Source of the DNA: Candidatus Obscuribacterales bacterium
GTDB lineage: Bacteria > Cyanobacteriota > Vampirovibrionia > Obscuribacterales > Obscuribacteraceae
NCBI GenBank assembly: GCA_965228855.1
Contig: CBDDIJ010000006.1
Location: forward strand, 1-40,288
DNA: 40,288 nt
Reading direction: 5' to 3'
Numbering within the stretch: position 1 is the first letter of the stretch; each line of letters opens with the position of its first letter. Below the pieces are notes generated by a model. The model saw nothing but the letters and a program-made list of their open reading frames with translations. It was not told the origin of the DNA and did not search any database. Shown here in pieces: positions 1 through 35,457 of this stretch. The translations under genes and the position numbers were made by a program.

Positions 1-1
1 A

Positions 2-682: not shown

Positions 683-732
683 CAATCTTTAGACTGATAA
701 TTGTGCAACCATCGGCCTGATTAGCCCTGCTT

Positions 733-3240: not shown

Positions 3241-3258
3241 TGGCGCATCGACGAATAT

Positions 3259-3981
3259 TCAAGTAGCGGTTTTCAACCTCAGGTCATCCTTGCTCAGTAT
3301 CAGAACGGTATTGGGGGTGAATCCTGTCCAGGCTTTTTGCGGAATGTTGGCTTGGCGCAAACGCTCGGCTCCGAAGCGGGCCTTTGCATCAAATTCTGCG
3401 GGCAGACTGACAATCGAACCCAGATGGGCGTGCCTGTCCTCGGCCCCAAAGCGCCTAACGTGGTCGTGCTGGCCGAACCGCCGCGTTCTTTCTTCATCCG
3501 AAATATCCTGAAAGCACTCATCATATTTTCCTCGCCCAAAGGGAATAATGCAGATTTGCTTCCCGGCCGGCTTCAGCATCCGATGCAGATGGAAAAGCGT
3601 GTAGGCAAAATTGCAGGGCACGTGCTCCATTACGTGAGAGTGGATAATGAGATCGTATTCTCCAGATAGCTGCGCGTCGAGATCACAGAGATCGAGCTTG
3701 ATGATGTTCTCGACAAACTTGTAACGCTTTGGGTTGATGTCCGAGCAGACGTAATTTTCCGGCGTCAGCAGTTTGCTCAATTTTCGATAGAGCCCGCGTT
3801 CGGGTGCAAGATGAAGAACCCGCGTGTCAGGACGGAAATCAACCTCCTGCAAATACATCCAAAGGAGTCGCGTACGCTCGACCGAGCGGCAGCTCCTGCA
3901 TTTGACCTTTGGTCGCGACTTGACGTCCTCGAACTCTGTGCCGCCACAGAGATTACATTTGATTTCAGACGCAGCCAGCAT
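3259..3981 (-). CDS. Class I SAM-dependent methyltransferase with N-terminal CxxC...CxxC motif
   Basis: RVLHLAPE (motif I variant), YDLIIHSHVMEHV, LHRMLKPAG and FGQHDHVRRFG; N-terminal CNLC..CRSC. I prefer the ATG at 3981 (preceded by AGGA) to the ORF start at 4014. Confidence 0.85.
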   Translation of the reverse strand: MLAASEIKCNLCGGTEFEDVKSRPKVKCRSCRSVERTRLLWMYLQEVDFRPDTRVLHLAPERGLYRKLSKLLTPENYVCSDINPKRYKFVENIIKLDLCDLDAQLSGEYDLIIHSHVMEHVPCNFAYTLFHLHRMLKPAGKQICIIPFGRGKYDECFQDISDEERTRRFGQHDHVRRFGAEDRHAHLGSIVSLPAEFDAKARFGAERLRQANIPQKAWTGFTPNTVLILSKDDLRLKTAT

Positions 3982-4024
3982 TTTCCATCCTACGAAAGAG
4001 AGACGTTGTCTCAAAATCCGGACC

Positions 4025-5101
4025 TCAAATGTGAGGTATTCGACGTAACCGAGCTCTTCTCTTTTTTACATAAGCGAGCTGTTTCTCCAGTTCATTCCCG
4101 AGCCCTCCAAAATAAGCGGTGGCATCACGCCGTTCTGCTATTTCAAAAGCGTCTGCGTCAAATTTTCGGCGTGGAACAAGACCCAGATCAACCATCGCAT
4201 TATGAATTTCTATCGGCCGTAGCGTATACGTTGGACTATTCGGTCTTTTCTTTCCCGAACGGCTTGCCATTCGGAAGATGGAATCTCGGCTCGCTAAAAC
4301 ATGAAACTCCGCTCTTGGAAAAATGTGTGGCGTGAAAATATCTACTCCGTTAGCACGCCGAGGAATCATGAATATCTTTCCTCTTATTTTCGCAGTTAAT
4401 TCGATCGGATAAATACTACTTCCTTCGGCGAATACTATACGTTCAGCGTTTTGAATTATTGAAACCTGATAATGAATATCAAATTCTTCTGGTCGAACAT
4501 ACTCGAAGCCATTGCCGATTAAGAGATCAGCAAAATAGCTTTCGCCCATGAGCGTCCCCTTCTGAATTAGATGAGTGCGACCATAATAAACATTTCGGGG
4601 AGTGTGATTTACGTGCTTGATCGGCAGCTTTTCCAGATGAGGCATGTACCAATCTGCGGGACCAGACTTCAGAATGCTTCCGGGTTCGGCAAATTCCAAT
4701 TGTTCGAAAACCATCGGCTCGCTGACGATCACGATATGATGTCGTTCCAGTCCAAAGATAGAAACGATATCGTAGAACCAGTCTGGGACCGCCTGTTCAC
4801 GGCCTTTCAGGTAAGCAAAAACAACACCATCATGCCGCTGAGGATCAAACGCCCAAAGCCTTATGATCGAGTCAACCAATACATGTCCAAAATGGATCTT
4901 GAGTGGCCCCCCGTAAAGATACCTTCCTCTTCTCTGTTCCGAGATGTTTTCATACTCTTCGGGTGAAGGAAATGAGTCGATCGGCTCCTTACCTTTGCCC
5001 CTTCGTACTCTCCCATGTTTTGGAACTTGTGCGTGGTCTGGCCCCCCTACCCAAGCCTTCCGGTAAGGAAGAATGAGGACGTCACGCCTAGTTTCGATCA
5101 C
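4025..5101 (-). CDS. GT61/DUF563-like glycosyltransferase
   Basis: YLYGG..HFGHVLVDSIIRLW and GFEYVRPEEFDIHYQVSIIQNAERIVFAEGSSI match the GT61/DUF563 pattern (HFGH; PE..Q....A..I...GS). GTGA overlap with the upstream gene. Confidence 0.7.
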   Translation of the reverse strand: MIETRRDVLILPYRKAWVGGPDHAQVPKHGRVRRGKGKEPIDSFPSPEEYENISEQRRGRYLYGGPLKIHFGHVLVDSIIRLWAFDPQRHDGVVFAYLKGREQAVPDWFYDIVSIFGLERHHIVIVSEPMVFEQLEFAEPGSILKSGPADWYMPHLEKLPIKHVNHTPRNVYYGRTHLIQKGTLMGESYFADLLIGNGFEYVRPEEFDIHYQVSIIQNAERIVFAEGSSIYPIELTAKIRGKIFMIPRRANGVDIFTPHIFPRAEFHVLASRDSIFRMASRSGKKRPNSPTYTLRPIEIHNAMVDLGLVPRRKFDADAFEIAERRDATAYFGGLGNELEKQLAYVKKRRARLRRIPHI

Positions 5102-5784
5102 ACACCCATCCCCAACTTGATTTCATCAAGGATTTTTTGAAAAGAAGCGAGACGAAATATCTGCTGCTCATTTACTAAATTTTCGAATGACTTTTCGCCG
5201 ACATCACGGATTGTACGCTCATCGACTCGAGATCTTCTCTTCCTCCAGACAACTGTCTGCCCGTGGTTTTCAAGTATCGTCCTATGCTCCATCTGCTGCA
5301 TAAACGTATCTAGAAAATAAATGCATCGATACACATCGCCCATCCAGCTTTTTTGCTGGGAACCCGTGTAGCGACGCACCTGGCGGAAGGTATTTCGGTC
5401 CGGAATCGAGGCAAGGTGAGTGGGAGGTCGAACGTCATCTATAAGAATGACGCCATTTTCATCCAAATAGAAAATGGCGTTGAATAAATCCCTTAAAGTC
5501 TGTTCTGACGTATGCAGACCATCAAGATAAATGACGTGAAACTTATCGTCAGGCCCAATGATCGAGCCAAAATACTCATCGCTTGTTACCTCATGATACT
5601 CAGCGTTGGGATGAGTATCCTTTGCGACCTTTAAATCGAACTTAAAATCGGGATCTACCGCTACCTTCCGGGGAGCGATGACACTATGAAAGGTGACACC
5701 TTTGCTAACACCAACTTCCAGATAACTTGGCTGATCAAATAACGAGAGTAAGCCTTGTACGGCCTGGTCTCTGCGAATAGCCAT
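5098..5784 (-). CDS. Class I SAM-dependent methyltransferase (Methyltransf_24-like)
   Basis: YLEVGVSKG, VAVDP, FHVIYLDGLHT, GVILIDD and WMGDV; GGAGG Shine-Dalgarno (SD) upstream of the ATG. Confidence 0.85.
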   Translation of the reverse strand: MAIRRDQAVQGLLSLFDQPSYLEVGVSKGVTFHSVIAPRKVAVDPDFKFDLKVAKDTHPNAEYHEVTSDEYFGSIIGPDDKFHVIYLDGLHTSEQTLRDLFNAIFYLDENGVILIDDVRPPTHLASIPDRNTFRQVRRYTGSQQKSWMGDVYRCIYFLDTFMQQMEHRTILENHGQTVVWRKRRSRVDERTIRDVGEKSFENLVNEQQIFRLASFQKILDEIKLGMGV

Positions 5785-5848
5785 TTATGTCCTCCGCATC
5801 TTTTGCGTCAAACTCAATTCAGCAATTATCCGACTGACATTTCGCCAA

Positions 5849-6877
5849 CTACTTTGAGCGTTTTCCAGCGCGAGCTTTCTTGTCCAGCCGCGCCAACGCC
5901 GCTATAGCCTTTATGGCTATCTCCCCGGTCTTTCGAGGGTCGAGGTCAACCGGCCCAGGAGGTTCTGCCTCCCTAGAGGAGAAGGCCGACGCTTCCCACC
6001 ACTGCGCATCGCCAGAGATCCCTTCCCTGATTTCCTCATCGACCAGTGAGAGCAGTACCTTGTTGTCTTCCCGAAAGAAGTCGATCAAGTCTGAAACTAT
6101 CTTGCTTTCCAACACCCAAGGGGCGGAACCGTTTCCGCCAACACGGTTTCTTTCCAAAACGAAATCGATCCCCGCGCCAAGTTTTTCGGCGCGGGTCTTT
6201 CTGTACTTCTGGAAGAGACGCAACGTACCTGCATCGAGCGTGACATTGCTCTTCCTCTGTGTGGCCATAAAGGGAAGGTCTGCGCCGAGCATTTCATAGA
6301 AACTTTCGACGACGTTGCGTGATACCGGGAAAACAGTGACATTGCGCACGGCGGGAACCTCATTCCATTTGGCTACCGTTTCCGCCCACAGGCCACTTTT
6401 CTTGAACTTGTTCACCCAGACGGGAAACTCCTTGCCACTCCAGGCTCCCCATTGCCACCAGGATGAGTTTATCCAAGGCACCTGAGGGCGCACAAAAATA
6501 ACAATATGAGGCGTCAGACCTAGTTTCTCGAAGACTTTACGATCCGAGAACCTGGCACTTTCATTGATCCAGCCTTCGTAGGAAAATACTGGTGTGACCC
6601 CCTCGTCAGCGATGGCCTTAAGTCGGGAAGCCAGAACGGGGACAGCTTCTTCAGAAAAGAAATCCCTAACCGAAACCGAGGAGGTATAGCCAAAGGCACT
6701 CTTCTTCGCTTCAGCGAGGCATTCCTCTCCGCGCTTAAGAATGCCTTCTTTCTTCAAACTCACATATTCGTATCGCGTACCTTCGCGCGAATAGAACACA
6801 GGCTCCTTGCTGAGGACCGACTGGAGCGAGCTGCTGCCGCACTTGCCCGCTCCGACATGCATAATACAGGGAAGCAT
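5849..6877 (-). CDS. Sulfotransferase-like P-loop protein
   Basis: N-terminal MHVGAGKCGSSSLQ (5'-PSB-like), FSYE, and IVIFVRPQ..WINS (3'-PB-like R..S); GAGG SD. Confidence 0.65.
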   Translation of the reverse strand: MLPCIMHVGAGKCGSSSLQSVLSKEPVFYSREGTRYEYVSLKKEGILKRGEECLAEAKKSAFGYTSSVSVRDFFSEEAVPVLASRLKAIADEGVTPVFSYEGWINESARFSDRKVFEKLGLTPHIVIFVRPQVPWINSSWWQWGAWSGKEFPVWVNKFKKSGLWAETVAKWNEVPAVRNVTVFPVSRNVVESFYEMLGADLPFMATQRKSNVTLDAGTLRLFQKYRKTRAEKLGAGIDFVLERNRVGGNGSAPWVLESKIVSDLIDFFREDNKVLLSLVDEEIREGISGDAQWWEASAFSSREAEPPGPVDLDPRKTGEIAIKAIAALARLDKKARAGKRSK

Positions 6878-6920
6878 ATACCCTCAATTCGCCTTTGAAA
6901 CCGAATGCAACGACGCGTCG

Positions 6921-7709
6921 CTAACCAGACTGATCGCAACACAGCTTTTGGAACTCTGTGTGTAGAGCGGGCCGAGAGAGAAGATAGGCCTCCTCTTCAT
7001 TCGTCAGCGCTTCCCGTCTGGGATTGGCGGAAACATTCACTGTCTGGTTCTTCGCCCCCATACCGGCAAGGTAAGTGCGCAAATCCTCTTTGAGGTCGAG
7101 GTCCAGTTTCTCGATGATGTTCTTATCGAGATACCCAAAACCATATTTGATGTGGTCGTCGAGGTTAAACAACAGCACCCGGTCTGGCGCCGCCTGCTTG
7201 ATCTTACGGTAGTGCTCTACGGATTTCAGATAGTCATCCGCCACCATCTCGATTGTACGGTCCGGCCAACGCGAGCTGATCGACAGATAGTTATCGACAA
7301 AATTTCTCACGCAGTAGACATAGACTGCCTTCTGGTCTGCGAGGTGTTTCTCGTAGAAATCGAAATAGAACTCATTGTTCGGACGCTTGTATCCGTAATA
7401 GCGGCAATCAGGCGAAGGGTTCAATCTCCTGGACTGAGTAGTATTGGCCCACATAGCATAAATCAGGTCTCTCTTCTTTTCCGTCCACGCCTGATACTCG
7501 CGCACTCGCCGGGGGTTCTCCCACTTGGCGGCACCTCGATAATATTTCTCCGACTCCTGAATGAACTTAACGAGCGACCTCATAACGGGGTTCGGAATTT
7601 CACCCTGGATCGTCACATCATCAAACGAGTTCAACACTTCGGTCAGGTACCGCGTTCCCGCGCGCTGGCGCCCAACGACGATCAGTGGAGTTACGTTCTT
7701 CAGATACAT
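6921..7709 (-). CDS. Sulfotransferase family protein
   Basis: LIVVGRQRAGTRYL (5'-PSB), YGYKRP and VYCVRNFVDNYLS (3'-PB). The ORF's 7955 start overlaps the upstream gene, so the ATG at 7709 (or 7736) is more plausible. Confidence 0.75.
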   Translation of the reverse strand: MYLKNVTPLIVVGRQRAGTRYLTEVLNSFDDVTIQGEIPNPVMRSLVKFIQESEKYYRGAAKWENPRRVREYQAWTEKKRDLIYAMWANTTQSRRLNPSPDCRYYGYKRPNNEFYFDFYEKHLADQKAVYVYCVRNFVDNYLSISSRWPDRTIEMVADDYLKSVEHYRKIKQAAPDRVLLFNLDDHIKYGFGYLDKNIIEKLDLDLKEDLRTYLAGMGAKNQTVNVSANPRREALTNEEEAYLLSRPALHTEFQKLCCDQSG

Positions 7710-7740
7710 ATTCGCATTTCTTTTTAAGCGAGCCATAGAA

Positions 7741-10700
7741 CTAATCCGCGACGAGAGCGGCATCCCGCATCTCCACCCCACCGTAGCTACCGATGTTCCA
7801 GAACGGCCGGATGCCATCATGAGGGAAATAAAGCGGTTTGACCTCATATGGGGATGTTGCCAGCGGCGCGACGTCCAGGCTTGTTTCGAAGCGCTCCCGC
7901 GCGGCAAACCAGATCGGCAAGAATCTTTCGTCGTCAAATTTGTCGATCTGCTCATAGGGCCAAGGCTTACCTGCGTGGTCCAGCAACCAGCGGGTAGCGC
8001 TTTTCAACCCTGCACCTTCCGGTGTGCTGTAGTTCCACAAATCCACCCCCCAACGCGTCCCGAGCTCAGCCAGATTGACCCAGCTCTGCAGATTAAAGCA
8101 GCAGTAATGTGCTGTCGTCTTACGCTTCAACTCATCGGGCTGGGCGCCTTCGGGCGTAAACTGCTGCGCTATACGAGACTGCGCCCGGGCGAGAGTATCA
8201 TACAAAACACCTCTCTCTCCGATGAAGGCGGCAATTGCGGCAACCTGCAAATCGTAGCAAGTTCCGTGATTGTTTTCCGCCGTGCGTTCGGCCTTGCCTT
8301 GGCGCGAAGACAGCAACCATTTCAGATAGGTACCAAGCCAATCCCGGAATGCGTCACTGCTGGCGGAGGCCAACGCCCCCGCTTCCTCTATCAGCCTGAC
8401 GGCATCGAGATAGTAGTACATGTCTTTCATCTCGATCAGACCCGTGGGCGCGCCTTCATTCCCATCATGCCCCATGCGAACCTGGCCGTATTTCAGGTGA
8501 GGCTTCATGCGCGTGTCCCTATTTACAAAGAACCGCTCAAGAATTTTCGCTCCGTGGTCGGCGTATCGCTTCTCCCCGAAAACCTTCGACGCAAGTGCCA
8601 ATGTGAAAGAGTCATCAAAAACACGTTGCAGGCGCGTTCGATCGTATTTCTCGCTATCGGGGTCGTACATGCCGGTGCCGGGAACCCGCTCGCCATCCTT
8701 GCGAATGTAGGGCAGTCCATCGGGCTTTTTCGGATCAGGCCACCAATAAGGCGCAGGATGCCAATAGTCCTGTCTGTTTCCGCTCGGAGGCAACGTCGTC
8801 TTGTCCGTGACGGAATAGAGGCCTCGAGAAAGTGCCTCCTCGGAAGCGCGGCGCAACGCCTCCGCAACCGGAGAGATCTCCGGCAGACGGCGGCCTGCAA
8901 CCTCTCGCGCAACCACATCCGACCGAAGCGAAACGCATCTCGATTCCGCCGCCTCGCTCAGGGTTGCATCCAGCGTCTGCAATGTCTCCAGAACCGCGTC
9001 GGCTCTCGCCACATGCCTTCTTTCGGCGCCGCCGACGTCTTGTGTTTCCAGTTCTTCAACGCCGGAAAACATACGCGCAACCCACCCCGCCACACCGAAC
9101 TGTCGGGCCTCCCGGGAGACCGGCCTGCGCTCCCTGTCCCAAGCATCGTCCTTGTATTCGTCCCATTTCCCGGCAATCTGGAGTCGCCAGAAAAGTTCCA
9201 CCTTCGGTCGCCTGCCGTAGCAGAAGTCCTCGTCAAAGCTTTCCGCAGCATCCTTCCGGAAGAGAACCTGAGGCTCTTCGCGAGGCTCCGCAGCAAAGGC
9301 GTCAGAGAGCAAAGCCTCGTTTGACGTCACACGCGTCATCGGCACGACAAAATATTTCAGATGTGCGTTCTGAATAACATTCGAACACAATTCGTCCCAC
9401 GCAGTTTGCGTAAAGAAGCAATTCCCGTCGAAGGGGAGAATCCACTTCGCTTTTTCCCGACCACTTTTCAGCGCAAGGTTACGGGCACCATTGTTATTCA
9501 TCACGTAGTTGTTCTTGAGCCGGTAGAGAGCCATCCGAAGCCTTTGCCTGCGCAACGGCTCAAACGAGTTGATATATCTGGCTGTGAGCAGGTCCGGCCT
9601 GCTCATGGCTGACATATCGAAACCTATACGCCGGTATTCCTCTGGATCGAATGGCACAACCTCATAGGAAGCACCGGATGCATCGAGAAGATCCACAATC
9701 TTTCTTTTCTCAGAAGGACCGACAATACGGTTGACGATATAGCGCTTCTCGCACCCAGGAAGCTCCTTCTCATTCTCGAGAATGAACTTGAGGTTCTGTC
9801 TGGATTGCCCGAGAGCGTGGCGCGGGTGAAGATCGTTGCCGATGATGCGATAGAGTACAAACTTGTCTTCCTCGCGATCTAATCCCCTCTCGATATATTC
9901 CTTCTTCAGCCTCTCAAGCTCCTCCTGCGACAACCGTTCGCGATAGAAAGCGGACGCAGCGGGAGCTCCAGACGCCCCCTCGCTCTCCGATGAGCCGGCA
10001 GAATCCCATTTCACGAAGTAGGCAGAGGCCAATGGCTCCAGCTTATCGAGAGGCGCCAGCCCGTCGAAGCCCGACCGGAACCGCTGGTGAAACAGCGTCT
10101 TGTCCTCCGGCACATTTTCCTTAAACACCTTTTTTGCGTCGTTCTCGAGCAGCAAGCAACGAGGATCATAAACCAGCTGATCCGTCACTCGCGCGATTAC
10201 CGTCAATTCGTTGTCGGCCTTGTGGGCGCGATAGCCGGGAAACAAAACAGCCCCCCCGTAAAGCGACCTGACCCAATCGAGGCGAACCATTCCGAAAGCG
10301 GCTACCCGTCCTCGCCATTTTCCGCAATTGAAGGCGAGCAACCCCTTACCGGTCTCCTCCATCCGGCTATGCGCTTCCTTGAGCCAATCGACACCACCAA
10401 AAGAATCTTCAGCAAGATACACAACGTATTTCACTCTAAGCCGAGAAACAGTCTCATTCAGAGTACGAATGAACCCCTGCCTGACAGTATCATCAACGAT
10501 GAAGAATTTAGCTTCGATACCAGACCTGTTCATAAGCAAGCGGGCCGTGCTCAACGCCTTATGCTGGTCTATGCATGGCATGACGACCGCAATTCCGTTC
10601 GGATCGTCCCACGACAGCTCCTCGACGTCGGCAACGTCAACGAGATGGATTGAATCATCGGACGGTGAATAGGGCTCGCCGTCCCGCGCACGAATTTTCC

Positions 10701-13700
10701 GAAGATTGAGGTATTCGTCCTTGTAGGGCTTGACCTCAGGCCAGCGAAACCGCGCATCGAAGCTCTTGTGAAAGCGTTCGTAAAACAGGTCCCGATCCTC
10801 AGGTGTCCAATTTGCGTGTCCCCCGCCCTCTTCGTTGTACGATGTTTTCTTCTCATCTATCTCCACCAGGACGCAATCTGGATTGTAGATAAACTCGTCC
10901 TGGATCCGCGCAATAACGGTCAGTTCATTGTCAGCCTTGTGTGATTTGTATCCTTCGAAGAAAATCGTCCCCCCATAGACACCTCTGCTCCAGTCACTAC
11001 GAACCATCCCGAAAGCAGCTATGCGGCCGTCCCACTTCCCGCAATTGAAAGCTAAAAGCCCCTTGCCGGATTTCTCCATAGTCTCGTGAGCTGTCTTCAA
11101 CCAATCCGTGCCCGCAAAAGCGTCTTCCGCCAAGTATACGAGATACTTTACCTCCAGCCGGGCAGCGACATCGTTCAGGGTATGTATGAATCCCTGTCGC
11201 AGCGTATCTAATGCAATGAAGACTGTCGTTTTCATTCCCGCGCGGCGCACCAGCAGGCGCGCCGTCTGAAGGGCGCGACCAGCATCGATACTGGGCATGA
11301 CGATGGCAATGCCTTCAGCATCGCGATGCCGAAGGCGCCCAATGTTCCGAACATCGATTATCTCAATCGAAGAATCTTCTTCGGCCGTTCCAAGATCAGG
11401 TGCTGCAGGGCCCAACGCTTCAGCAATAGTTTGTGAACGAACAACCGGGACACTCACCAGGTCATGTCCTTCCGATCCGGTGATCAAATCCGAAACTTCG
11501 CCCGTCTGCCTCCTGTAAAACTCATTGAAGCGGTCAAGGAATGCTTTGGCCGCAGGAAGCGGTCCTCTCACCTCACGCAAAGCACGATAAGCCGTGAGAA
11601 AAAAATTAGACCGTGCCGCCGGATAGGAAAACTGGCGGCGAAAGAGCTTGCCACTCGCTTCGCGCATCCTCTCCGTCTTTTCGGGATCATCAAATATTTC
11701 GCAGACGACTTTCTTCATTGCGTCCCAGTCGCCGAAAGGAACCAGACGCAAATATCCTTGCCGTGCCAAGTCGCCGAGATCCGAAATATCGTTAGCGATA
11801 ATGGAAGGCCCCATAGCAAAAGCATCGGTCGCCTTATAGGGCATCTGATAGTGACTGGCGGGCACCTCCGGATCGAGCCACAAGATGACAAGGTCTGCTG
11901 CCAGATTGATGCGAGCCATCGCCTCCCGATCTTGCGGCGGCATGACCTTCACCCGCTCGCCATATTTGTCGACAAGCTTCTTTTGATCCGGAGTCGGACG
12001 CGAACCGACAAAAAGAAGCTTGTAGCGTGGGTCGTCCAGCCTCTCCACGAGTTCCACAAGCTCGTATATGCCTTTGTGTTTGCGCAGCAAACCGCCAAAC
12101 AGAATTACTCGATCATCCGGACCTATTCCAAGATCACGCCTCACCTTGGCGCGGTCATAAGACTTCGGATCGTAAACCCTTTCATCCTTCAGATTGCGCA
12201 TATAGAGGCAATTGCCTCCGAAATGCGCGTCGATATTCTTATTGTGGGTGAGAAGAACCGGAAGCTGCTTCGCTATCGGGTCCATGATACTCGACCAAAG
12301 GTCTCCGTATGGGGAAGCGAGATTCTTGTCCGCGAGATCGGCGCTTTCAAATTCCGCCTCGGTATGACGGTCTTCACTCTTCGGCGAGCTTACAACTGTT
12401 TCCAGGTCGTTGATCTCTAGGACAATAGGTGTACCGCGAAGTGCGTTGACCAACAAGGCAACACCAAGACTCGGCAAGCGTGGCTTCACGACATAAATCA
12501 GATCGCCATCGATTGCATCGACCGCCCGCTTCATCGAATCGAAGAAGTCTGGAAAGTCCGTGCCCGGCAGATATATCGTTTCGAATTTAGGCTCCACGCC
12601 TTTCAGTGGTGGAAATATTTCCTCTTCGAAAAACCTGAATGAAACGAGCTGAACCTCGTATTCTTCGCTCAAAGCCTCCGCCAAGGCGAAAGGCTTCGAG
12701 AAATGGTTTCGGCACATATCCCACGACAGTATCGTGACTTTTTTTACGGGACGTATGGAAGCCTCGGGCAAACCTCTTTCGATATAGACTGCAACGCTAT
12801 TGTTTATGATCGAAACGCAAGATTCGTCTGCCTGCTGCGCTGTAGTGATCTGATTGAGGCTTTCATTTCTCTGGTAGAGCGCGAGGGGCTCCTCAACAAA
12901 CAAGGGGTCTCGAAGCCAGGTATATTTGATTATCAGGTCGTAGTCCTGACGGCGTGTAAGCCGATCGTCGAATCCTCCGAAACAATCATATAGCTCTCTT
13001 CGGTGAACAAACGTATTCAGGTCAATGAAGTTCTTCATCAGCAAGCGCTCATGGTCGAACGGCTTTGCCGAATAGTCCTTTATAGAGTTCACACCCTCTC
13101 TATCCACTTGGTAGTCAATATAGCTAGAGCGTGCGGATGAGCTTCCTGGCCGCTCAAGCAAAGCAAGAACCAACCGCGAAAGAAAAGAGGGGTGCCAGCA
13201 ATTATCGCTATCGAGATAAGCGATCAGGTCGCCCCTTGCGCGCGCCAGTCCTCTGTTGCGCGCCGCCGCCGCACCCGACTTGGGAAGACTCAAATAGCGA
13301 ATTCGATTCCGATCGAACCGCTTGATAACATCTGCCGTATTGTCGGTGCTGCCGTCATCACAAATGATCAGTTCCCAATTGGAATAACTCTGATCGAGTA
13401 CACTCTGAATTGCCTCTTCTATTATGGCGGCCCGATTGAAGGTCGGCATAATTATGCTGACAAGTGGCTTTTCTTGATAATTTTCTAGGCGCGCAACCGC
13501 GTCGCGAAGCTTCGCCTCGCTCCGCTCGAAAGCTTTGGCAAAATCCGCGGGAAAGCCGTCAGATAAGACCTGTCGCAATTTCCGGCCAAAGATACCCGCC
13601 TGAACGTCTGGATGAAGAACGCGTTGAACAAGCTCTCGTCCTGCGTCCTTTCCGCCTTTGTTCGACCAAACCTGTTCGCTACCAAACGCTCCGCCTACGA

Positions 13701-15540
13701 TCTTTCCCGACTGCACTGCGTGTATGAGGGGGTTCGTGCGACCCGCAAGTTCCGGATGTTCCTTCAAATAAGCAGCCGTGTTGAACCAACGGCTCGGGTC
13801 ACGCCCCTCTTCTGCGCCATGTAACAGATAGTGCTCGAGAGGGTTTAGCCCCGCTTCGGCAACATCAGAATATTGGCTCAGATACCATTGCGCGTCGAAC
13901 GCCGGGTGAGGTTGCCGCCCCTCATGACCTCCCGATACCAAGAAATGTTCGAGCGGATTGAGCCCCGCGTCCGCGACATCCGGGTTTCGCTCGAGATACA
14001 TTTCCGTATTGAAAAGGGAATGTGGATCGCGCCCCTCCGAGGCACCAAAAATCAGGTAGTGGGTTTCCGGAGCCATACCGCTTTGGGCAACATCAGGATT
14101 TTTTTCAAGATACCACTCTGCATCAAAGAGTGGTGATGCTTCTAGACGCTTCTGACGCCACGCTAGGCTGACCCCCTCTCCGACAAGCGGCAGAGACCAA
14201 AGCAACGACAGCGAAAACCTTTCCGCCTGCTGCAGCCTTTTCTTGACTCCGTTCACCCCTGTTGCCCCGGATGCTGCGTCTGAAGCCAACCTCTCATCCA
14301 TCTTGGCCAAGGTCGCATTTCGGGGACGGTTCCAGATATTTCCTCTCCACAGCCTGGCCGCGAGCCATCCGCTCAACGGGCGCAGCCTCGCCAGATCGTC
14401 CAGCAGAACCTGGGCTAATCGCTCGAACTGCGTTTCCGACTTCTCTGTGGCCGCAAGTTTTTTTTGATAAACTTCATTTTGCCGTTCTTGGCGAGCCAAT
14501 GCTTCCTTCAGCGCTTTCTCTTTTTCTCTCTGCTTTTCACCTTCGGACTGCAGTATCCTTATCCGGTGAAGCGCTTCGCTGCGCTCCCTCTTGTATTCTC
14601 CAGCCCTTTCCTGGCTCGCTTCGAGCCTTTCCTTGACTGTGCGGTTCATCTCGCGCAAAGCCGAGAGCGTTTCTTCGTCTGCCTCGAACTCTCTCAATAT
14701 GGTCGAAGCGCGATTTGAAAGACGCGGCAGTTCAGAGAAATTTCTTCTGCGAGAGAGATTTCCCCACAGTTCGGTTTGCTCCGGCGACAGAAGCGCAAGG
14801 TCCTCGTCGCCGCTTGCTCGCTCACGACGAAGCGATCCCTGTACGGATTGTATCGCTGCCTCCAGATTGAGGCCTCGGACACCTCTTTCAGCGAGCTCAC
14901 TTGCCAGCTTCCCGAGCGTTTCCTCCGGCACGGTAACGAGGTCATCATAGTCGACGAACAGATGATCGAGGTGCAATCCGTATCGAAGCGCCGAAACAGT
15001 ATAAGCTTCCCAGAGGGCGAGCCCTCCCTGAAGCCGAAACCCATTTCTCCGTCGGAGAGATTTCGCAATTTCAACAGGGTGTCTGGTGACGTAGATGACC
15101 AGAGGATCAACTAACGCACTCTGAAATATCGGCAGGAGGAGGCAAAGGCGCGGCTCCTTGAGTGCCCAAGTGCCTTGTTCATTCAGTTCCGAGAGCAATT
15201 TTCGTATGGCCGGCCGGGCCTTCTGAACGATGTCGAAATTGATATTGTCGGGATCAAAATTGCTGATCTTCCACCAATCGGCACCCGAGTTGTGGAGAAG
15301 CATATCGCATATCTCGCGCGCGTCGCGCCGTTCGAAAAAGCCCTTCTGGTTTTGCCAGTTCGTAGGGGTCAATTCCTCCTCGTCGCCAACATGAACCCCC
15401 ATGCTCGCGAGCGCGCCCGTCAACGCGGAAGTTCCGGACCGATGCATTCCGAGGACCACGATTTGACGATTGCTCCTCGTTCTCCCTGCCTCCTCGCTTG
15501 GCAAGGTGCCTGTCTGCATTTCTTCGCCGTCATTATTCAT
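7741..15540 (-). CDS. Giant (~2600 aa) multidomain glycan enzyme: sulfotransferase, coiled coil, 38-aa repeats, GT2, GT4, two GT-A-like modules, unknown domain, alginate lyase family domain
   Basis: Uninterrupted ORF 7741..15597 with likely starts at ATG 15540 or 15519. Motifs in order: VVLGMHRSGTS/LKEPR; FDAEWY repeats; PLVSIIMPTFNRA..ICDDGSTD..AYLDSD..QDYD; ILFGG..HKG..ADLV..PYKATDAFAMG; duplicated IAxVMP..YLAED..HKADNELTVIAR; FVLYRIIGND..NNNGARN..LPFDGN; DYWHPAPYWWPDP..NNHGT..HYCCFNL. Confidence 0.9.
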   Translation of the reverse strand: MNNDGEEMQTGTLPSEEAGRTRSNRQIVVLGMHRSGTSALTGALASMGVHVGDEEELTPTNWQNQKGFFERRDAREICDMLLHNSGADWWKISNFDPDNINFDIVQKARPAIRKLLSELNEQGTWALKEPRLCLLLPIFQSALVDPLVIYVTRHPVEIAKSLRRRNGFRLQGGLALWEAYTVSALRYGLHLDHLFVDYDDLVTVPEETLGKLASELAERGVRGLNLEAAIQSVQGSLRRERASGDEDLALLSPEQTELWGNLSRRRNFSELPRLSNRASTILREFEADEETLSALREMNRTVKERLEASQERAGEYKRERSEALHRIRILQSEGEKQREKEKALKEALARQERQNEVYQKKLAATEKSETQFERLAQVLLDDLARLRPLSGWLAARLWRGNIWNRPRNATLAKMDERLASDAASGATGVNGVKKRLQQAERFSLSLLWSLPLVGEGVSLAWRQKRLEASPLFDAEWYLEKNPDVAQSGMAPETHYLIFGASEGRDPHSLFNTEMYLERNPDVADAGLNPLEHFLVSGGHEGRQPHPAFDAQWYLSQYSDVAEAGLNPLEHYLLHGAEEGRDPSRWFNTAAYLKEHPELAGRTNPLIHAVQSGKIVGGAFGSEQVWSNKGGKDAGRELVQRVLHPDVQAGIFGRKLRQVLSDGFPADFAKAFERSEAKLRDAVARLENYQEKPLVSIIMPTFNRAAIIEEAIQSVLDQSYSNWELIICDDGSTDNTADVIKRFDRNRIRYLSLPKSGAAAARNRGLARARGDLIAYLDSDNCWHPSFLSRLVLALLERPGSSSARSSYIDYQVDREGVNSIKDYSAKPFDHERLLMKNFIDLNTFVHRRELYDCFGGFDDRLTRRQDYDLIIKYTWLRDPLFVEEPLALYQRNESLNQITTAQQADESCVSIINNSVAVYIERGLPEASIRPVKKVTILSWDMCRNHFSKPFALAEALSEEYEVQLVSFRFFEEEIFPPLKGVEPKFETIYLPGTDFPDFFDSMKRAVDAIDGDLIYVVKPRLPSLGVALLVNALRGTPIVLEINDLETVVSSPKSEDRHTEAEFESADLADKNLASPYGDLWSSIMDPIAKQLPVLLTHNKNIDAHFGGNCLYMRNLKDERVYDPKSYDRAKVRRDLGIGPDDRVILFGGLLRKHKGIYELVELVERLDDPRYKLLFVGSRPTPDQKKLVDKYGERVKVMPPQDREAMARINLAADLVILWLDPEVPASHYQMPYKATDAFAMGPSIIANDISDLGDLARQGYLRLVPFGDWDAMKKVVCEIFDDPEKTERMREASGKLFRRQFSYPAARSNFFLTAYRALREVRGPLPAAKAFLDRFNEFYRRQTGEVSDLITGSEGHDLVSVPVVRSQTIAEALGPAAPDLGTAEEDSSIEIIDVRNIGRLRHRDAEGIAIVMPSIDAGRALQTARLLVRRAGMKTTVFIALDTLRQGFIHTLNDVAARLEVKYLVYLAEDAFAGTDWLKTAHETMEKSGKGLLAFNCGKWDGRIAAFGMVRSDWSRGVYGGTIFFEGYKSHKADNELTVIARIQDEFIYNPDCVLVEIDEKKTSYNEEGGGHANWTPEDRDLFYERFHKSFDARFRWPEVKPYKDEYLNLRKIRARDGEPYSPSDDSIHLVDVADVEELSWDDPNGIAVVMPCIDQHKALSTARLLMNRSGIEAKFFIVDDTVRQGFIRTLNETVSRLRVKYVVYLAEDSFGGVDWLKEAHSRMEETGKGLLAFNCGKWRGRVAAFGMVRLDWVRSLYGGAVLFPGYRAHKADNELTVIARVTDQLVYDPRCLLLENDAKKVFKENVPEDKTLFHQRFRSGFDGLAPLDKLEPLASAYFVKWDSAGSSESEGASGAPAASAFYRERLSQEELERLKKEYIERGLDREEDKFVLYRIIGNDLHPRHALGQSRQNLKFILENEKELPGCEKRYIVNRIVGPSEKRKIVDLLDASGASYEVVPFDPEEYRRIGFDMSAMSRPDLLTARYINSFEPLRRQRLRMALYRLKNNYVMNNNGARNLALKSGREKAKWILPFDGNCFFTQTAWDELCSNVIQNAHLKYFVVPMTRVTSNEALLSDAFAAEPREEPQVLFRKDAAESFDEDFCYGRRPKVELFWRLQIAGKWDEYKDDAWDRERRPVSREARQFGVAGWVARMFSGVEELETQDVGGAERRHVARADAVLETLQTLDATLSEAAESRCVSLRSDVVAREVAGRRLPEISPVAEALRRASEEALSRGLYSVTDKTTLPPSGNRQDYWHPAPYWWPDPKKPDGLPYIRKDGERVPGTGMYDPDSEKYDRTRLQRVFDDSFTLALASKVFGEKRYADHGAKILERFFVNRDTRMKPHLKYGQVRMGHDGNEGAPTGLIEMKDMYYYLDAVRLIEEAGALASASSDAFRDWLGTYLKWLLSSRQGKAERTAENNHGTCYDLQVAAIAAFIGERGVLYDTLARAQSRIAQQFTPEGAQPDELKRKTTAHYCCFNLQSWVNLAELGTRWGVDLWNYSTPEGAGLKSATRWLLDHAGKPWPYEQIDKFDDERFLPIWFAARERFETSLDVAPLATSPYEVKPLYFPHDGIRPFWNIGSYGGVEMRDAALVAD
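10061..11380 (-). repeat. Intragenic tandem duplication of a ~200-aa module (copy A ~10760-11380, copy B ~10061-10660)
   Basis: Collinear shared blocks: GIAxVMPxID, TARLL, RQGFIxTLN, VKYxVYLAED, GKGLLAFNCGKWxGRxAAFGMVR, HKADNELTVIAR, PEDxxLFxxRF. Confidence 0.95.
13714..14130 (-). repeat. About 3.6 tandem 38-aa (114-nt) coding repeats, consensus F[DN]xxxYLxxxPDVAxxGxxPxxHYLxxGxxEGRxP
   Basis: Units start at 14130, 14016, 13902 and 13788 on the minus strand; the last is partial. Confidence 0.92.
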
Positions 15541-15611
15541 AAAGCGACTCTGACAATTTCTTGCACGTATGGACCTGCGGACGCAGCCGTCTTTCAAAGA
15601 TGCAACACGAA

Positions 15612-15637
15612 ACGCAACCGCCTCTTCGGCGGTGCGT
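15612..15637. promoter_or_regulatory. GC-rich hairpin with an ops-like arm in the divergent intergenic region
   Basis: ACGCAACCGCC-TCTTC-GGCGGTGCGT (10-bp stem, one bulge). The minus strand reads GGCGGTTGCGT, one mismatch from ops GGCGGTAGCGT. Function is inferred only. Confidence 0.3.
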
Positions 15638-15884
15638 ATGTCCTTACCAACTCTAAGGCTGTGTTACCCTCTGTTCCCCCAAGGGAATTTATCAATCGAA
15701 TGATCAAATCTTCAATAGCCGGATGCCCCCAAGTATCAACGAGTTTAGCTTGACCTCTCTATAAGGGTAAGCGAAAGATCGGCGAGCAAAATGCTCTAGC
15801 CGCGCTCAAGTTTGACGCTGCGAAGGTACTGAGTTTTTCTCATCGGGCTATAATCCTTACCCTGACGTGGATGCCTTTTTACTA

Positions 15885-16454
15885 ATGATCGAATGCATTC
15901 CTACAGTAATTCCTGCCGTAAAAGTGTTGATTCCACGGCGTCATGGCGATGCGCGGGGTTATTTCAGCGAAACCTTCAATCGGCGCGCCATGGCCGATGC
16001 GGGCGTCGATCTCGATTTTCTGCAGGACAATGAGTCACTCTCGGCCATGACGGGCACGATCCGGGGATTACATTTCCAGAACCCTCCCTTTGAACAGACA
16101 AAGCTTGTTCGAGTGCTGACAGGCGCGATATTGGATGTGGCTGTCGATCTGCGTGCGAACTCTCCCACCTATGGGAAACATGTCGGTGTCCGGCTGAGCG
16201 CAGAGGAAGGTAACCAACTCCTGGTACCTGCGGGATTCGCCCACGGGTTCTGCACACTTACCCCCAACACACGCGTTTTTTACAAGGTTGATCGCTATTA
16301 CTCGGCGGCTCATGATGCGGGCTTGTTCTGGAACGATCCGGACATCGGAATTGAATGGCCGGTCGCCGACGCCGATGCGGTCCTTTCGGAGAAGGACATG
16401 CACCTACCGGCCTTCGCCGACTTCAAAAGCCCGTTTACGTTCCAGGGCGCGTGA
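15885..16454 (+). CDS. rmlC: dTDP-4-dehydrorhamnose 3,5-epimerase
   Basis: [47 protein letters not shown] and LSEKD. ATG at 15885 (alternative GTG at 15867). Confidence 0.97.
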
Positions 16455-16489
16455 TTCCGGCGGATGTCACGCTCCAGAGGGGAGTTGAA

Positions 16490-17551
16490 ATGCGAGTGCT
16501 GGTAACGGGGGGAGCGGGCTTTATTGGCTCCGCAGTTGTCCGAACGATCATTGAAGAGACGAACTTCGAGATCTTGAACGTCGATTGCCTTACCTATGCG
16601 GGCAACTCAGACTCTCTTGCAAGTATTGCGGGTAGTGACCGCTATTCTTTTTCGAGAACGGATATTCGCGATCTTCCAGCCCTGCGCCGAGCGGTTGAAG
16701 GATTTTGTCCCGATCTCGTCATGCATCTGGCCGCGGAAACGCATGTCGACCGGTCTATTGATGGTCCTGCGGACTTCGTACTGACCAACATGGTGGGAAC
16801 CGCAAACCTGCTGGAAGCTACCCGCGCATACTGGACAGGCCTTGATGACGCCGCCAAAAGGCGCTTTCGGCTTCATCACGTCTCGACCGACGAGGTGTTC
16901 GGCTCGCTTGGTCCGAGCGGTCAATTCAGCGAGACGACACCGTACGCACCAAATTCGCCCTACTCTGCCTCCAAGGCCGGTTCCGACCATCTCGTGCGAG
17001 CTTGGCATGAAACCTTTGGGCTGCCGGTTATTACAAGCAACTGCTCCAACAACTACGGGCCATGCCAGTTTCCTGAGAAACTAGTCCCTCTGATCATACT
17101 CAATGCTCTGGAGGGCAAGAAGCTGCCCATATATGGCACCGGCAAGAATATTCGCGACTGGTTGCATGTCGAAGATCATGCGCGGGCTTTGATCGCCATT
17201 GCGACCCGCGGTCAGCCGGGGGAGACCTACTGCGTTGGAGGAAACGAGGAACGCACCAATATAGACGTCGTGCTTACCGTCTGTTCCATTCTTGACGAGT
17301 TACTGCCGCAATCTCAGCATCGACCTCATGCCAATCTCATAACCTATGTCGCCGACCGCCCCGGCCATGATGCACGCTACGCGATCGACGCTTCGAAGAT
17401 CGAACGCGAGCTCGGCTGGCGGCCCCAAGAAACTTTCGAGAGCGGCATCAAAAAGACGGTGCAGTGGTATCTCGACAACCGAAGCTGGTGGGAACGTGTG
17501 CGGGCGGGCGCCTATCGCGGTGAACGTCTTGGCCTTGCAGGCGCAGGCTGA
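16490..17551 (+). CDS. rmlB: dTDP-glucose 4,6-dehydratase
   Basis: [54 protein letters not shown] and DRPGHD. A GGAG SD precedes the ATG at 16490. Confidence 0.97.
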
Positions 17552-17554
17552 TCA

Positions 17555-18487
17555 ATGAACGAAACGGGGAGGCCCACGCGGCTGCTCGTAACCGGAGCAC
17601 AAGGACAGACCGGCACAGAGCTTACCCGTAAGGGAAGAGCTGCCGGCTTCGAAATTGTCGCTTTCGGACGAGACGAACTTAACATCGGCGACCACAGAGC
17701 GGTGGCTCAAGCCATCGAAAGCAACCGGCCGGACGCCGTTATCAACGCGGCTGCCTATACCGCAGTCGACCGAGCGGAAACCGAACCGGAGATCGCACAG
17801 ACAGCTAACACCGATGGGCCGGGAAATATTGCGGACGTGTGCGCGGATGCCGGCATCCCGATTTTTCACATCTCGACCGACTACGTTTTCGACGGACGTG
17901 GTACGCGGCCATACCTTGAAGATGACGCGATAGCACCGCAAGGTATCTACGGTGCCACCAAAGCCGCGGGAGAAGAGGCCGTCAGACGAGCGACGAAGCA
18001 GCATATTATCCTCCGTACATCATGGGTTTTCAGCGCCCACGGCAGAAATTTTGTAAAAACCATGCTGAAACTCACCGAAGAAAGAAGCGAGCTCGCTGTC
18101 GTCGGCGACCAGAAGGGCTGCCCCACTTCGGCCGGCGACATCGCTTCGGCCCTGCTGGATATCGCCGCGCAGTCCTTGCGCAGACGCGAGGTCGATTGTT
18201 CTCCGTGGGGCACCTATCACTTCTGCAATCGTGGTGAAACGTCATGGTTCGGCTTCGCCCAAGCCATCGTCGAGGGGGCTGCGGCGCGCGGAGGAAGAAA
18301 CATTCCCGTAAGAAGTATTTCTACCGCAGACTATCCAACGCCAGCTCGACGGCCCGCATACTCGGTGCTCGACAACGGCAAGATCAATCACGTGTTCGGC
18401 ATCATCCCACGTCCGTGGAAAGACGCTCTCGGCGAGGTTCTCGATGAACTGGCGCAGCCTGTGCTGCGACCAAAAGGGCAGAAGTAG
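17555..18487 (+). CDS. rmlD: dTDP-4-dehydrorhamnose reductase
   Basis: [43 protein letters not shown] and [13 protein letters not shown]. Confidence 0.96.
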
Positions 18488-18498
18488 AGGCAAGTAGT

Positions 18499-19368
18499 AT
18501 GAAAGGCATCATATTGGCGGGGGGGAGTGGTACGCGGCTTCATCCCGTAACACGGGCCGTTTCGAAGCAATTGCTTCCGGTCTACGATAAGCCAATGATC
18601 TATTATCCGCTGACCACGCTAATGCTGGCGGGCATTCGAGATATTCTGATCATTACGACCCCGCACGACGCCGGCGCATTCGAACAGCTGCTTGGCGATG
18701 GCAGCCGATGGGGCATCTCGATTTCCTACTCGGTGCAGCCGAAGCCCGAGGGGTTGGCTCAAGCGTTCATCATTGGTCGCGATTTTGTCGGTGGAGGTCG
18801 CTGTGCGCTCGTTCTTGGCGACAACATCTTCTACGGCGCGGGCCTTTCATCGATTTTGCAGCGGGCCGCCGGGCGCGGCAAAGGTGCCACCGTATTCGGC
18901 TACTGGGTAGCTGACCCCGAACGCTATGGCGTGATCGAATTCAACAATCAGGGCCAGACTATTTCCATCGAAGAAAAGCCGAAGACGCCTAAATCTCACT
19001 ACGCAGTGACGGGCCTCTATTTTTACGATTCGCGCGTGAGCGACATGGCGGCCGAGGTGAAACCTTCTTCCCGAGGCGAACTCGAGATCACGACGCTCAA
19101 CGAGATGTATCTGAAGGACGGTACCCTCAATTGCGAATTGCTGGGACGTGGCTTTACCTGGCTCGACACGGGCACACACCAAAGCCTCCTTCAGGCGAGT
19201 CAGTTCGTCGCTACAATCGAAGAGCGGCAAAACCTGAAAATCGGCAGTCCCGAAGAGGTTGCCTTTCGTATGGGTTTTATCGACGCGGAACAGCTCCTGG
19301 TTGCCGCCCATGATACGGGACGGACGCCCTATGCTGCCTATTTGCGCTCCGTCGCCCGGGGGGACTGA
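18499..19368 (+). CDS. rmlA: Glucose-1-phosphate thymidylyltransferase
   Basis: [48 protein letters not shown] and WLDTGTH. Confidence 0.98.
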
Positions 19369-19433
19369 GTTTCTTTCGCGTCCATGCCATCAGCGGTGCA
19401 ACGCGGATGCCAGCAGAGCATTCAGGTCACAAA

Positions 19434-27016: not shown

Positions 27017-28386
27017 CGCACCCTGAAAAACCAGAGAAGCCCAGGCTGTCCAAGGAGTCGAAGGAGGAGGCGCTCCGCCGTATCCTGAAGAAGCACGGCA
27101 GCGCTGACGGGCAAGCAAAGGGAGCGTCCGTTCAACCCTCTGGAAGTGTTCCCGAATCCCATTACCGCATCGATAAGTTTGCCGACTATCAAGCGCTCAC
27201 CCTGCAACGCGAACTCGCGAAGAAGGTTGATCTTGAAAGCCCCTACTTCCTTGAACATGACAAACTGGCGCGCGATACAGCCTTCATCGGCGGCAAGGAA
27301 TACGTCAATTTTGGGACCTACAACTATCTCGATCTGAACGGCCACCCACGGGTAAACGACGCCGCTCATCAGGCGATGCTCAAATACGGCACTTCGGCCT
27401 CAGCCAGTCGCCTTGTATCAGGTGAAAGACCGCCGCACCGGGAGCTCGAGTCACTGATTGCCAAAATTCATGGCACACCTGCAGCGATCACCTTCGTTTC
27501 CGGCCATGCGACAAACGTATCGACCATCGGAACGCTTCTCGGCAAACGCGATCTCATCCTGCACGATAGATTGATCCATAATTCCATGCTGCAGGGAGCG
27601 CTTCTCTCCGGCGCCACGCGACAGCCCTTCGATCATAATGATGTGAAGGGACTTGACGAGCTGCTGACGCGCTCCCGCCGCAAGTTCGAGAAAGTTCTTA
27701 TCTGCATCGAAGGCATTTATTCGATGGATGGGGATATGCCCCCTCTACCTGACTTCATCGAAGTTGCGCGCAAGCACAAGGCGCTCATCATGATTGACGA
27801 AGCGCATTCTCTTGGTGCCTTGGGGGCACGCGGATACGGAATTTCGGAACATTTTGGCATTGACCCATCTGAAGTCGACATCTGGATGGGGACACTCTCA
27901 AAAACACTGGCTGGCTGTGGCGGCTATATTGCAGGCTCGGAAGCGCTGATAACGCTGCTCAAGCATTCCGCTTCCGGCTTCCTCTATTCGGTCGGCATGC
28001 CGCCCCCTATCGCGGCGGCGTCACTCGAAGCAATTAGAATCATGGAGGAAGAACCTGAACGCGTAAGGAAACTTCAGGCCAACGGAAAGCTGATGCTTGA
28101 CCTCGCTCGGGCAGCCGGACTTAACACCGGATATGCAATCGGCTCACCGGTTCTCCCTATTATCACGGGAAGCTCCTTGCTTGCTGCGCGACTCTCTAAG
28201 GCGCTTTTCGAAGCCGGCATCAATGCGCCACCGATCATTTATCCCGCTGTAGAAGAACGTGTGGCGCGGTTGCGCTTCTTCATCTCAAGCGCGCACAGCG
28301 AAGAGCAAATCCGTTTCACCATAAATGAAACGGCCACTCAGTTACGTCTCCTCACCAACGGCCAGGCGAATATAGCGACGGACTAG
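27013..28386 (+). CDS. PLP-dependent alpha-oxoamine synthase (BioF/SPT/KBL family), WcbT/RkpG-like
   Basis: NFGTYNYL, GTSASASRLVSG, SGHATN, HNS, FDHND, EGIYSMDGD, DEAHSLG and GTLSK (PLP lysine). GTGA overlap with the PKS stop. Confidence 0.92.
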   Translation: MTHPEKPEKPRLSKESKEEALRRILKKHGSADGQAKGASVQPSGSVPESHYRIDKFADYQALTLQRELAKKVDLESPYFLEHDKLARDTAFIGGKEYVNFGTYNYLDLNGHPRVNDAAHQAMLKYGTSASASRLVSGERPPHRELESLIAKIHGTPAAITFVSGHATNVSTIGTLLGKRDLILHDRLIHNSMLQGALLSGATRQPFDHNDVKGLDELLTRSRRKFEKVLICIEGIYSMDGDMPPLPDFIEVARKHKALIMIDEAHSLGALGARGYGISEHFGIDPSEVDIWMGTLSKTLAGCGGYIAGSEALITLLKHSASGFLYSVGMPPPIAAASLEAIRIMEEEPERVRKLQANGKLMLDLARAAGLNTGYAIGSPVLPIITGSSLLAARLSKALFEAGINAPPIIYPAVEERVARLRFFISSAHSEEQIRFTINETATQLRLLTNGQANIATD

Positions 28387-28400
28387 AGGCCTCGTGTGCC

Positions 28401-29886: not shown

Positions 29887-29894
29887 CGGTGAAC

Positions 29895-35345: not shown

Positions 35346-35457
35346 CGGATCAATACTCCCATCACCACGCTCGCCTCAAAATCGGCATAGCGCATATCCC
35401 AAACTCGTAAACCGGCTTGTCGTCGCCGGATTGCGATCTCGCCCCCGAGATCTATGG

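Follow-up and report, generated by a model that had tools for sequence, protein, structure and literature searches.

The window, by which we mean the whole stretch of 40,288 nucleotides analysed here, contains an rkp/wcb-type Kps capsule cluster. A block for capsule export and priming on the minus strand (28831..39238) encodes a glycosyltransferase (GT), KpsD, KpsE, KpsT, a TPR-KpsM protein, KpsS, a sulfatase-fold protein and an SDR. The presence of KpsM, T, E and D agrees with the ABC-dependent capsule context proposed in a first-pass annotation of this DNA. On the plus strand, an RkpA/WcbR-type single-module polyketide synthase (PKS) and a BioF-like PLP enzyme (19601..28386) are predicted to supply the lipid anchor; the rkp/wcb link of PKS-type capsule genes is taken from the accessible part of PMC3908369. 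Next to them, rmlC, rmlB, rmlD and rmlA (dTDP-L-rhamnose; 15867..19368, plus strand) diverge from a single very large minus-strand gene, the product of which we call the megaenzyme. Downstream of this gene and co-oriented with it (733..7727, minus strand) lie genes for a second sulfotransferase, a 342-aa protein of unknown type, a Methyltransf_24 protein, a GT61, a methyltransferase and an 835-aa repeat-GT2-GT4 protein. Three of them also follow the megaenzyme homologue of locus L108.

In the matching MAG (G001), further GT2 and sulfotransferase genes continue past the end of the window. G001 also encodes an APS kinase and, on another contig, one UDP-glucose dehydrogenase beside galU; within the window we found no uronate-donor gene. 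Three queries found no Wzm/Wzt pair in this draft genome, so that export would fall to Kps. Of its remaining ABC-2 permeases, the two examined are not Wzm. The Wzt_C module was likewise not found in the draft, and the KpsT of the locus (218 aa) has no carbohydrate-binding module. The single PF05159 match in G001 is KpsS; KpsC, which forms with KpsS the priming pair of group 2-type capsules, was not found with the queries used.

The megaenzyme is encoded on the minus strand (7741..15597) in one frame without a stop, giving 2618 aa from a TTG codon. In-frame ATG codons at 15540 (2599 aa, the start used in the first-pass annotation) and 15519 (2592 aa, the protein-database call, P0001) put the length at about 2,590-2,620 aa depending on the start chosen; residue numbers given here refer to the 2618-aa frame. 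Upstream of the gene, no promoter or terminator consensus was found. From N- to C-terminus, the protein comprises a sulfotransferase-family domain, a coiled coil, four 38-aa repeats, a GT2 module, a GT4-like module, two compact modules termed A1 and A2, a module termed UNK and a PL38-like lyase domain. These segments agree with the domain coordinates first assigned to within a few tens of bases, and the sulfotransferase, GT2, GT4 and alginate-lyase calls all received Pfam matches. A hydropathy scan revealed no transmembrane or signal segment, as had been claimed; the highest value over 19 residues, 1.86, falls within the sulfotransferase domain.

So unusual a fusion might be an assembly chimera or a set of fused pseudogenes, and the probable mis-binning of the contig carrying the window points to assembly errors, though of another kind. 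The 742-kb contig of a Parvibaculum MAG (L001) matches the window at 99.55% identity over 1-19916 and at 99% over 20300-40288, and none of 20 relatives of the window's own assembly (G000) carries the UNK-lyase pair. Both observations suggest that the window's contig (C6) consists of Parvibaculum-like DNA and was probably put into the G000 bin by mistake. L001 preserves the reading frame itself without a break, differing there from the window at 16 bases and 7 residues. Among four sequencing runs compared as contigs, run X4, which derives from a different strain, covers positions 7000-16000 with a single contig (record 10) that shows 19 substitutions but no gap. Run X3 covers 7570-16000 in one piece (contig record 9) and may be the source data, while runs X8 and X10 cover the stretch piecewise. 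Together with seven other proteins of the same full architecture, the one-piece X4 contig and the intact L001 frame rule out a chimera for practical purposes, and the single unbroken ORF described at first inspection stands.

The sulfotransferase-family domain (14788..15471, minus strand; aa ~43-270) matches Pfam Sulfotransfer_3 above the cut-off (aa 46-233, E 2e-7) and contains both GMHRSGTS and R-x-P-x(4)-S, which we take to be the PAPS-binding motifs. Clustered at 50%, its very large family still counts 19,015 representatives. Sulfotransfer_3 (PF13469) is matched by 46 of 50 aligned members, and in 108 of the 142 representatives examined the motif lies within the first 110 residues, i.e. 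the domain is usually N-terminal. A profile search against PDB sequences gave 2Z6V as the best match, at E 0.026 only. The coiled coil follows (14398..14730, minus strand; aa ~290-400) and is predicted to be a molecular ruler. A crude, home-made heptad score marked residues 290-341 and 354-383, against a mean of 0.2 such segments in 20 shuffles of the protein, in support of the coil called earlier. Behind it, a basic, Trp-containing segment of moderate hydrophobic moment (14323..14397, minus strand) is a candidate membrane-attachment helix, by analogy with the WbdD layout as outlined in the available part of PMC11231755. The four 38-aa repeats (13702..14145, minus strand) have no Pfam match and were recovered as previously noted. 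They start at residues 491, 529, 567 and 605, a spacing of exactly 38; copies 1-3 share 18-19 of 33 residues, copy 4 only 5-8 of 33. Several homologues dispense with the repeats, which also occur at the N-terminus of the 835-aa GT encoded in the operon.

Five modules of GT type follow, the upper limit given by the first-pass annotation, the fifth being its 'unknown domain' (UNK). The GT2 module (12763..13470, minus strand) matches Pfam Glycos_transf_2 (aa 714-822, E 4e-37), and its motifs DDGS, DSD and QDYD are conserved in 56 sequences. The GT4-like module, of GT-B type (11563..12747, minus strand), matches Glycos_transf_1 (aa 1149-1315, E 6e-12). A1 (10708..11376, minus strand) and A2 (10003..10656, minus strand) have no Pfam match, although 27 of 43 members of the A family weakly match Glycos_transf_2. 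Self-BLAST of the megaenzyme returned the diagonal only; it was comparison of segments that brought out the duplication, with 120 of 223 positions identical (54%, E 8e-90). The predicted model of A2 (pLDDT 90.6) has a GT-A fold, with PcManGT as the best match (6YV7; Z 15.1, rmsd 3.4, 192 aligned), so that the earlier call of duplicated GT-A-like modules holds. A profile search of the A module against PDB sequences gave no match. WrtF and RmlT topped the Foldseek list of A2 and were rejected as guides to its donor, being too remote at 10-16% identity. Nor did co-occurrence lend support to the A modules as rhamnosyltransferases: rml genes are found together with 6 of 32 A loci versus 6 of 59 non-A loci.

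UNK (8953..9873, minus strand) has neither a Pfam match nor, in a profile search, a match among PDB sequences. Modelled together with the lyase from a 76-sequence alignment (pLDDT 93.9, pTM 0.93), it is predicted to adopt a GT-A fold and to pack against the lyase domain. Its fold matches are the chondroitin polymerase K4CP (Z 13.0, rmsd 3.5, 193 aligned), WrtF (Z 12.1), the heparosan synthase 2 PmHS2 (12.0) and LARGE1 (10.9), with which Foldseek agrees weakly. Look-alikes of UNK were also seen in giant viruses (ESM Atlas, BFVD), and one ESM Atlas row (0.86) points to a basidiomycete GT49 cluster, as a lead only. Residues D2057, E2108 and Q2110 are invariant in 252 of 252 UNK sequences; at position 1960 the window encodes Gly where 225 of the 252 have Asp, which we counted against our main explanation. 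Neither A nor UNK modules contain a canonical DxD, the place of which is taken by AED (in A2, beside a conserved DNE) and DGN. The A and UNK profiles are unrelated by hhalign. The models assign a GT-A fold to A2 and UNK, and to A1 through its identity to A2, and both families, for which Pfam holds no model, are a new part of the megaenzyme. A predicted fold alone assigns no donor to any of these modules.

The C-terminal domain (7777..8946, minus strand) is an alpha/alpha lyase of PL38-like type (Pfam Alginate_lyase, aa 2262-2544, E 9e-74). By sequence it matches 3NFV (E 2e-62) and BoPL38 of Bacteroides ovatus (8BDQ, E 2e-40), and its model superimposes on 3NNB (Z 46.3, rmsd 2.0, 370 aligned) and BoPL38 (Z 41.1, rmsd 2.8, 372 aligned). 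All nine active-site residues of BoPL38, including the catalytic His/Tyr pair, are kept: Y2284, D2301, Q2372, E2437 and N2443 correspond to Y91, D108, Q173, E236 and N242, and H2444, R2492, H2497 and Y2498 to H243, R292, H297 and Y298. The nine are intact in 14 of the 14 closest megaproteins checked and in 183 of 217 aligned lyase domains, a partly redundant set; a paralogous clade in related loci carries H243I and H297D. Signal-like N-termini were found in 11 of 11 Bacteroidales PL38 proteins without UNK (scores 2.7-3.4) versus 3 of 134 UNK-fused proteins at a score of at least 2.5 (8 of 134 at 2.0 or more). A lyase without signal that is tethered in cis is a further new part of the megaenzyme.

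The architecture recurs, which confirms that the fusion is real. From 7999 scored candidates we obtained 155 matches, 120 of which were listed. Among these 120, eight proteins including the query have the full architecture, the seven others at 52-77% identity; one belongs to Hyphomonas johnsonii, whose cultured strain MHS-2 encodes the homologue P0004, and in L112 the full sulfotransferase-headed version lies two genes after wzm-wzt. Five of the 120 have the full order minus UNK, 30 have the UNK-lyase pair with other partners, and three stop behind the A modules, which means that not every homologue has the lyase. In a FastTree tree, six UNK-less megaproteins that keep the lyase nest beside the query (support 0.96-0.98), which ties the lyase to the whole assembly line rather than to UNK alone. 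The tree, rooted at its midpoint, was built from a subsample made up of 30 UNK-fused domains drawn at random, further selected ones, every non-fused domain and the Bacteroidales set. In it, the wider GT-fused clade reaches a support of only 0.88 and does not include two distant UNK-lyase proteins. Across homologues the enzyme domains are 45-87% identical while the coil varies in length, with 44-250 scored residues in 19 homologues. In comparison with the L108 homologue, for which synonymous sites approach saturation, the lyase has a pN/pS of 0.16 and the GT modules have 0.10-0.21. The GT4-like module, lowest among these, is the best conserved segment of the whole protein, and the coil, at 0.47, the least conserved. 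Judged by these ratios, the lyase and the GT modules are under purifying selection.

The N-terminal enzyme varies as well. In L005, L123 and L127, a related multi-GT protein begins with Methyltransf_24 and a long coil, and the operons also encode wzm and a wzt bearing the Wzt_C module. With a methyltransferase in the position of the sulfotransferase, the enzyme at the N-terminus can evidently be exchanged, as one would expect if it sets a cap. Position, coil variation and methyltransferase swap bear out the proposed likeness of the sulfotransferase-coil unit to the terminator-ruler unit of WbdD and WbbB, and the domain is predicted to be a chain-end capping enzyme.

Outside megaenzymes, UNK and lyase also travel together. 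UNK was matched by 894 of 6266 candidates of 398-1267 aa, and the lyase is present in 90 of the best 120. Of 331 pattern matches in species genomes, 235 encode relatives (Bacillota, Proteobacteria, Bacteroidota and others). Of 59 loci of at least 12 kb without an A module, our own queries detected a GT2 in 24, a sugar dehydrogenase in 14, a KpsT-like protein in 6 and a KpsE-like protein in 2; the neighbours of the pair are metabolic genes in L049 and spore-coat genes in L008. In the genus of G001, 3 of 49 genomes have the pair, two of them as distant stand-alone genes. The pair is thus often found outside ABC-exported glycan loci, which weakens the claim that the lyase exists only for ABC export. 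UNK was not found in plasmid and phage collections, nor the pair in viral contigs.

Several characterized systems resemble parts of the megaenzyme. A terminator-coil-GT layout is described for WbbB (Klebsiella pneumoniae O12), ORF6 (serotype O7) and WbdD/WbdA (E. coli O9a) in the part of PMC11231755 consulted. Like WbbB and WbdD, the megaenzyme has an N-terminal modifying enzyme, a putative coiled-coil ruler and C-terminal GT modules in an ABC export locus; unlike WbbB, its cap would be set by a sulfotransferase-family domain, and it has five GT-fold modules instead of two and a lyase in cis. Its KpsMTED exporter also differs from the O-antigen prototypes in the lack of a cap-reading carbohydrate-binding module, although the Wzt_C module does occur beside the methyltransferase-headed relatives. 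The lyase shares its fold (Z 41-46) with BoPL38 and BACOVA_01668 (3NFV/3NNB), and with BoPL38 the nine active-site residues, whereas their Bacteroidales relatives examined have signal-like N-termini and the megaenzyme lyase has none, is GT-fused and sits in a biosynthetic locus. A lyase in an ABC-dependent capsule locus is known from Achromobacter denitrificans, where VexL cuts the strain's own capsule; free VexL in the cytoplasm left Vi antigen undegraded unless export was blocked (PMC6003464, excerpt). VexL is however a separate, periplasmic beta-helix protein of family PL1 according to the same excerpt, while the megaenzyme lyase is an alpha/alpha barrel, predicted to be cytoplasmic and fused to the polymerase. 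Cgs likewise joins synthesis to a size-limiting degradative domain in one very large chain (PMC10901819, in part), but is described there as an integral membrane homopolymer synthase with phosphorylase and cyclase, and we claim no homology. As to the locus, the rkp-1/wcb loci and the Vibrio sp. KMM 8419 capsule have comparable PKS-linked genes, Kps, rml, GT61 and sulfotransferases, as far as the available parts of PMC3908369 and PMC11641403 extend; in Vibrio sp. KMM 8419, GTs and sulfotransferases are separate genes, and the words 'lyase' and 'coiled' are absent from the accessible text (PMC11641403). By analogy, the megaenzyme would function in the manner of WbbB, with a degradative tail of the Cgs kind in addition.

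We propose, with a probability of about 0.5, that the megaenzyme is a cytoplasmic capsule assembly line whose tethered lyase trims or clears its own chain. KpsS and the RkpA-type genes would prime the chain on a lipid anchor, and GT2, GT4, A1, A2 and UNK would each contribute a single linkage to a repeat unit that would contain a 4-linked uronic acid. The coil would keep the sulfotransferase off the GT modules, so that a chain would have to reach a minimum length before its growing end is sulfated and extension stops, a step modelled on WbdD and WbbB. The finished chain would be exported by KpsMT-E-D, and the lyase would cut at uronates in chains that stall, overrun or fail export. By established lyase chemistry, the anchored piece would end after such a cut in an unsaturated uronate that lacks a 4-OH. 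Extension at that position would be impossible, so the cut could also stop growth. Within this scheme, we consider it likely that the lyase-fold domain is active on its own polymer, and somewhat less firmly so that it cuts rather than epimerises; that the sulfate is an end cap seems probable to about the latter degree. Because KpsT lacks a carbohydrate-binding module, it should not be taken for granted that a cap is read as it is by O-antigen exporters, and with other sulfotransferases encoded in the locus, sulfate may sit at the chain end or within repeats. That free VexL left Vi antigen uncut during export means that nascent chains may be shielded; its cutting only under export block fits a clean-up role and hints that a lyase may have to be tethered to reach its chain.

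The main rival holds that the lyase-fold domain is chiefly an in-line C5-epimerase (e.g. glucuronate to iduronate) in the making of a sulfated glycosaminoglycan-like capsule. BoPL38, whose His/Tyr pair the megaenzyme conserves, has about 4% epimerase activity, as its partly available description states, and a biosynthetic enzyme, the human dermatan sulfate epimerase 1, has the same fold (Z 19.6, rmsd 3.8, 314 aligned). The prediction of UNK and lyase as one rigid unit (pTM 0.93) would suit such a role, and cutting its own chain in cis would be costly. Yet the closest solved relatives, at Z 46 and 41, are lyases, and we identified no residue change favouring epimerisation; we regard this rival as unlikely. 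More improbable is that the domain is a binding or scaffold domain holding the acidic chain, with catalysis incidental, as would be paralleled by Cgs, whose trimming phosphorylase activity is dispensable while the domain is needed (PMC10901819, in part). The paralogous clade with His-to-Ile and His-to-Asp changes lends it some plausibility, but the query and most aligned sequences keep all nine site residues.

At the other end of the protein, the sulfotransferase might decorate repeat units, with the coil as a plain spacer and length set by lyase or export. Kps-exported sulfated capsules with internal Rha3S exist (PMC11641403, accessible part), rml genes are adjacent here, and KpsT has no cap-reading module. 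Against this stand the methyltransferase swap at the same position and the variable length of the coil, and internal sulfate could be provided by the stand-alone sulfotransferases of the locus, which makes this option quite unlikely, if less so than a scaffold. Returning to an assembly line with a trimming lyase, a stronger version, in which the lyase is a routine step of synthesis, either making an elimination-derived unsaturated uronate cap as a second, cofactor-free terminator or epimerising in line, appears possible though doubtful.

The megaenzyme is thus real and recurrent, and apparently uncharacterised. The literature searched, mostly titles and the beginnings of abstracts outside subscription papers, yielded neither a GT-PL38 fusion nor a sulfotransferase terminator, and no published match to the full architecture. 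Mann, Kimber and Whitfield (Glycobiology, 2019) reportedly survey terminator chemistries and may already list sulfotransferases. The novelty suggested at first inspection apparently holds for the full architecture and was overstated for the N-terminal half, because the sulfotransferase family is very large and its domain usually N-terminal.

Chain length in capsules and O-antigens has so far been explained by caps and rulers, and VexL, the described capsule lyase, acts after export. With a cytoplasmic lyase fused to the polymerase, whether cutting or epimerising belongs to synthesis becomes directly testable. For the family of ~19,000 sulfotransferase representatives, the placement of the domain suggests sulfate capping, and glycoengineering would have an interest in one soluble enzyme able both to polymerise and to sulfate an acidic glycan. 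Should the lyase prove to be a routine step, the UNK-lyase pair would represent an as yet undescribed transferase-editor unit that is widespread in several phyla of bacteria and, in the case of epimerisation, one polypeptide would make a sulfated glycosaminoglycan-like capsule.

The window contig (C6 of the Obscuribacterales assembly G000, positions 1-40288) is collinear with positions 60473-100762 of contig C8 in G001, a 742-kb contig of a draft Parvibaculum MAG, with ~99% identity over the full length. Since, in addition, the pair formed by the GT-A-fold module UNK and the lyase domain was absent from every G000 relative tested (n=20), these sequence comparisons indicate that C6 was probably mis-binned in G000. 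Residue 1960 of UNK (megaenzyme frame; window 9718-9720) is Gly in the window allele; it is Asp in the Parvibaculum contig L001, in sequencing runs X4, X8 and X10 and in 225 of 252 homologues.

For GT2-GT4-A-A proteins lacking the lyase domain, a separate lyase-family gene was found in the same operon, belonging to PF05426 in locus L122 (8767-9960) and heparinase II/III-like in L131 (3865-5832). A distinct clade of signal-less lyase paralogues carries Ile instead of the catalytic His and Asp instead of H297 (BoPL38 numbering), and its members (L020:3892-5949; P0062, P0063, P0126-P0128 and P0135) are often N-terminal to another UNK-lyase unit. Mesorhizobium loci, including L049 (9719-12103), contain stand-alone UNK-lyase genes surrounded by metabolic genes, and some of these UNK-lyase genes have Gln in place of the catalytic His.

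A Mesobacillus UNK-lyase gene (L008:9896-12919) lies amid GT2, cotZ and YheC/D genes and possibly has a role in spore-surface glycans. A fucosidase and a sugar-acid catabolic operon adjoin the capsule locus of L085 (11810-19211) and are conserved beside the homologue in L108. In L112 (13760-17369), a full-architecture homologue is flanked by genes for making phosphonates, encoding a PEP mutase, a TPP enzyme and an Fe-ADH.

Within the window, a 342-aa protein without Pfam match (5849-6877, minus strand) has an N-terminal P-loop-like motif similar to the start of a sulfotransferase. The KpsM permease (33519-35345, minus strand) carries an N-terminal TPR region of ~350 aa in a single ORF. KpsS is encoded at 35458-36810 (minus strand) and is present in G001, but a second PF05159 gene (KpsC) was not found in that draft genome. 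Together with the PKS, this gene content hints at a capsule anchor different from the standard oligo-Kdo linker.
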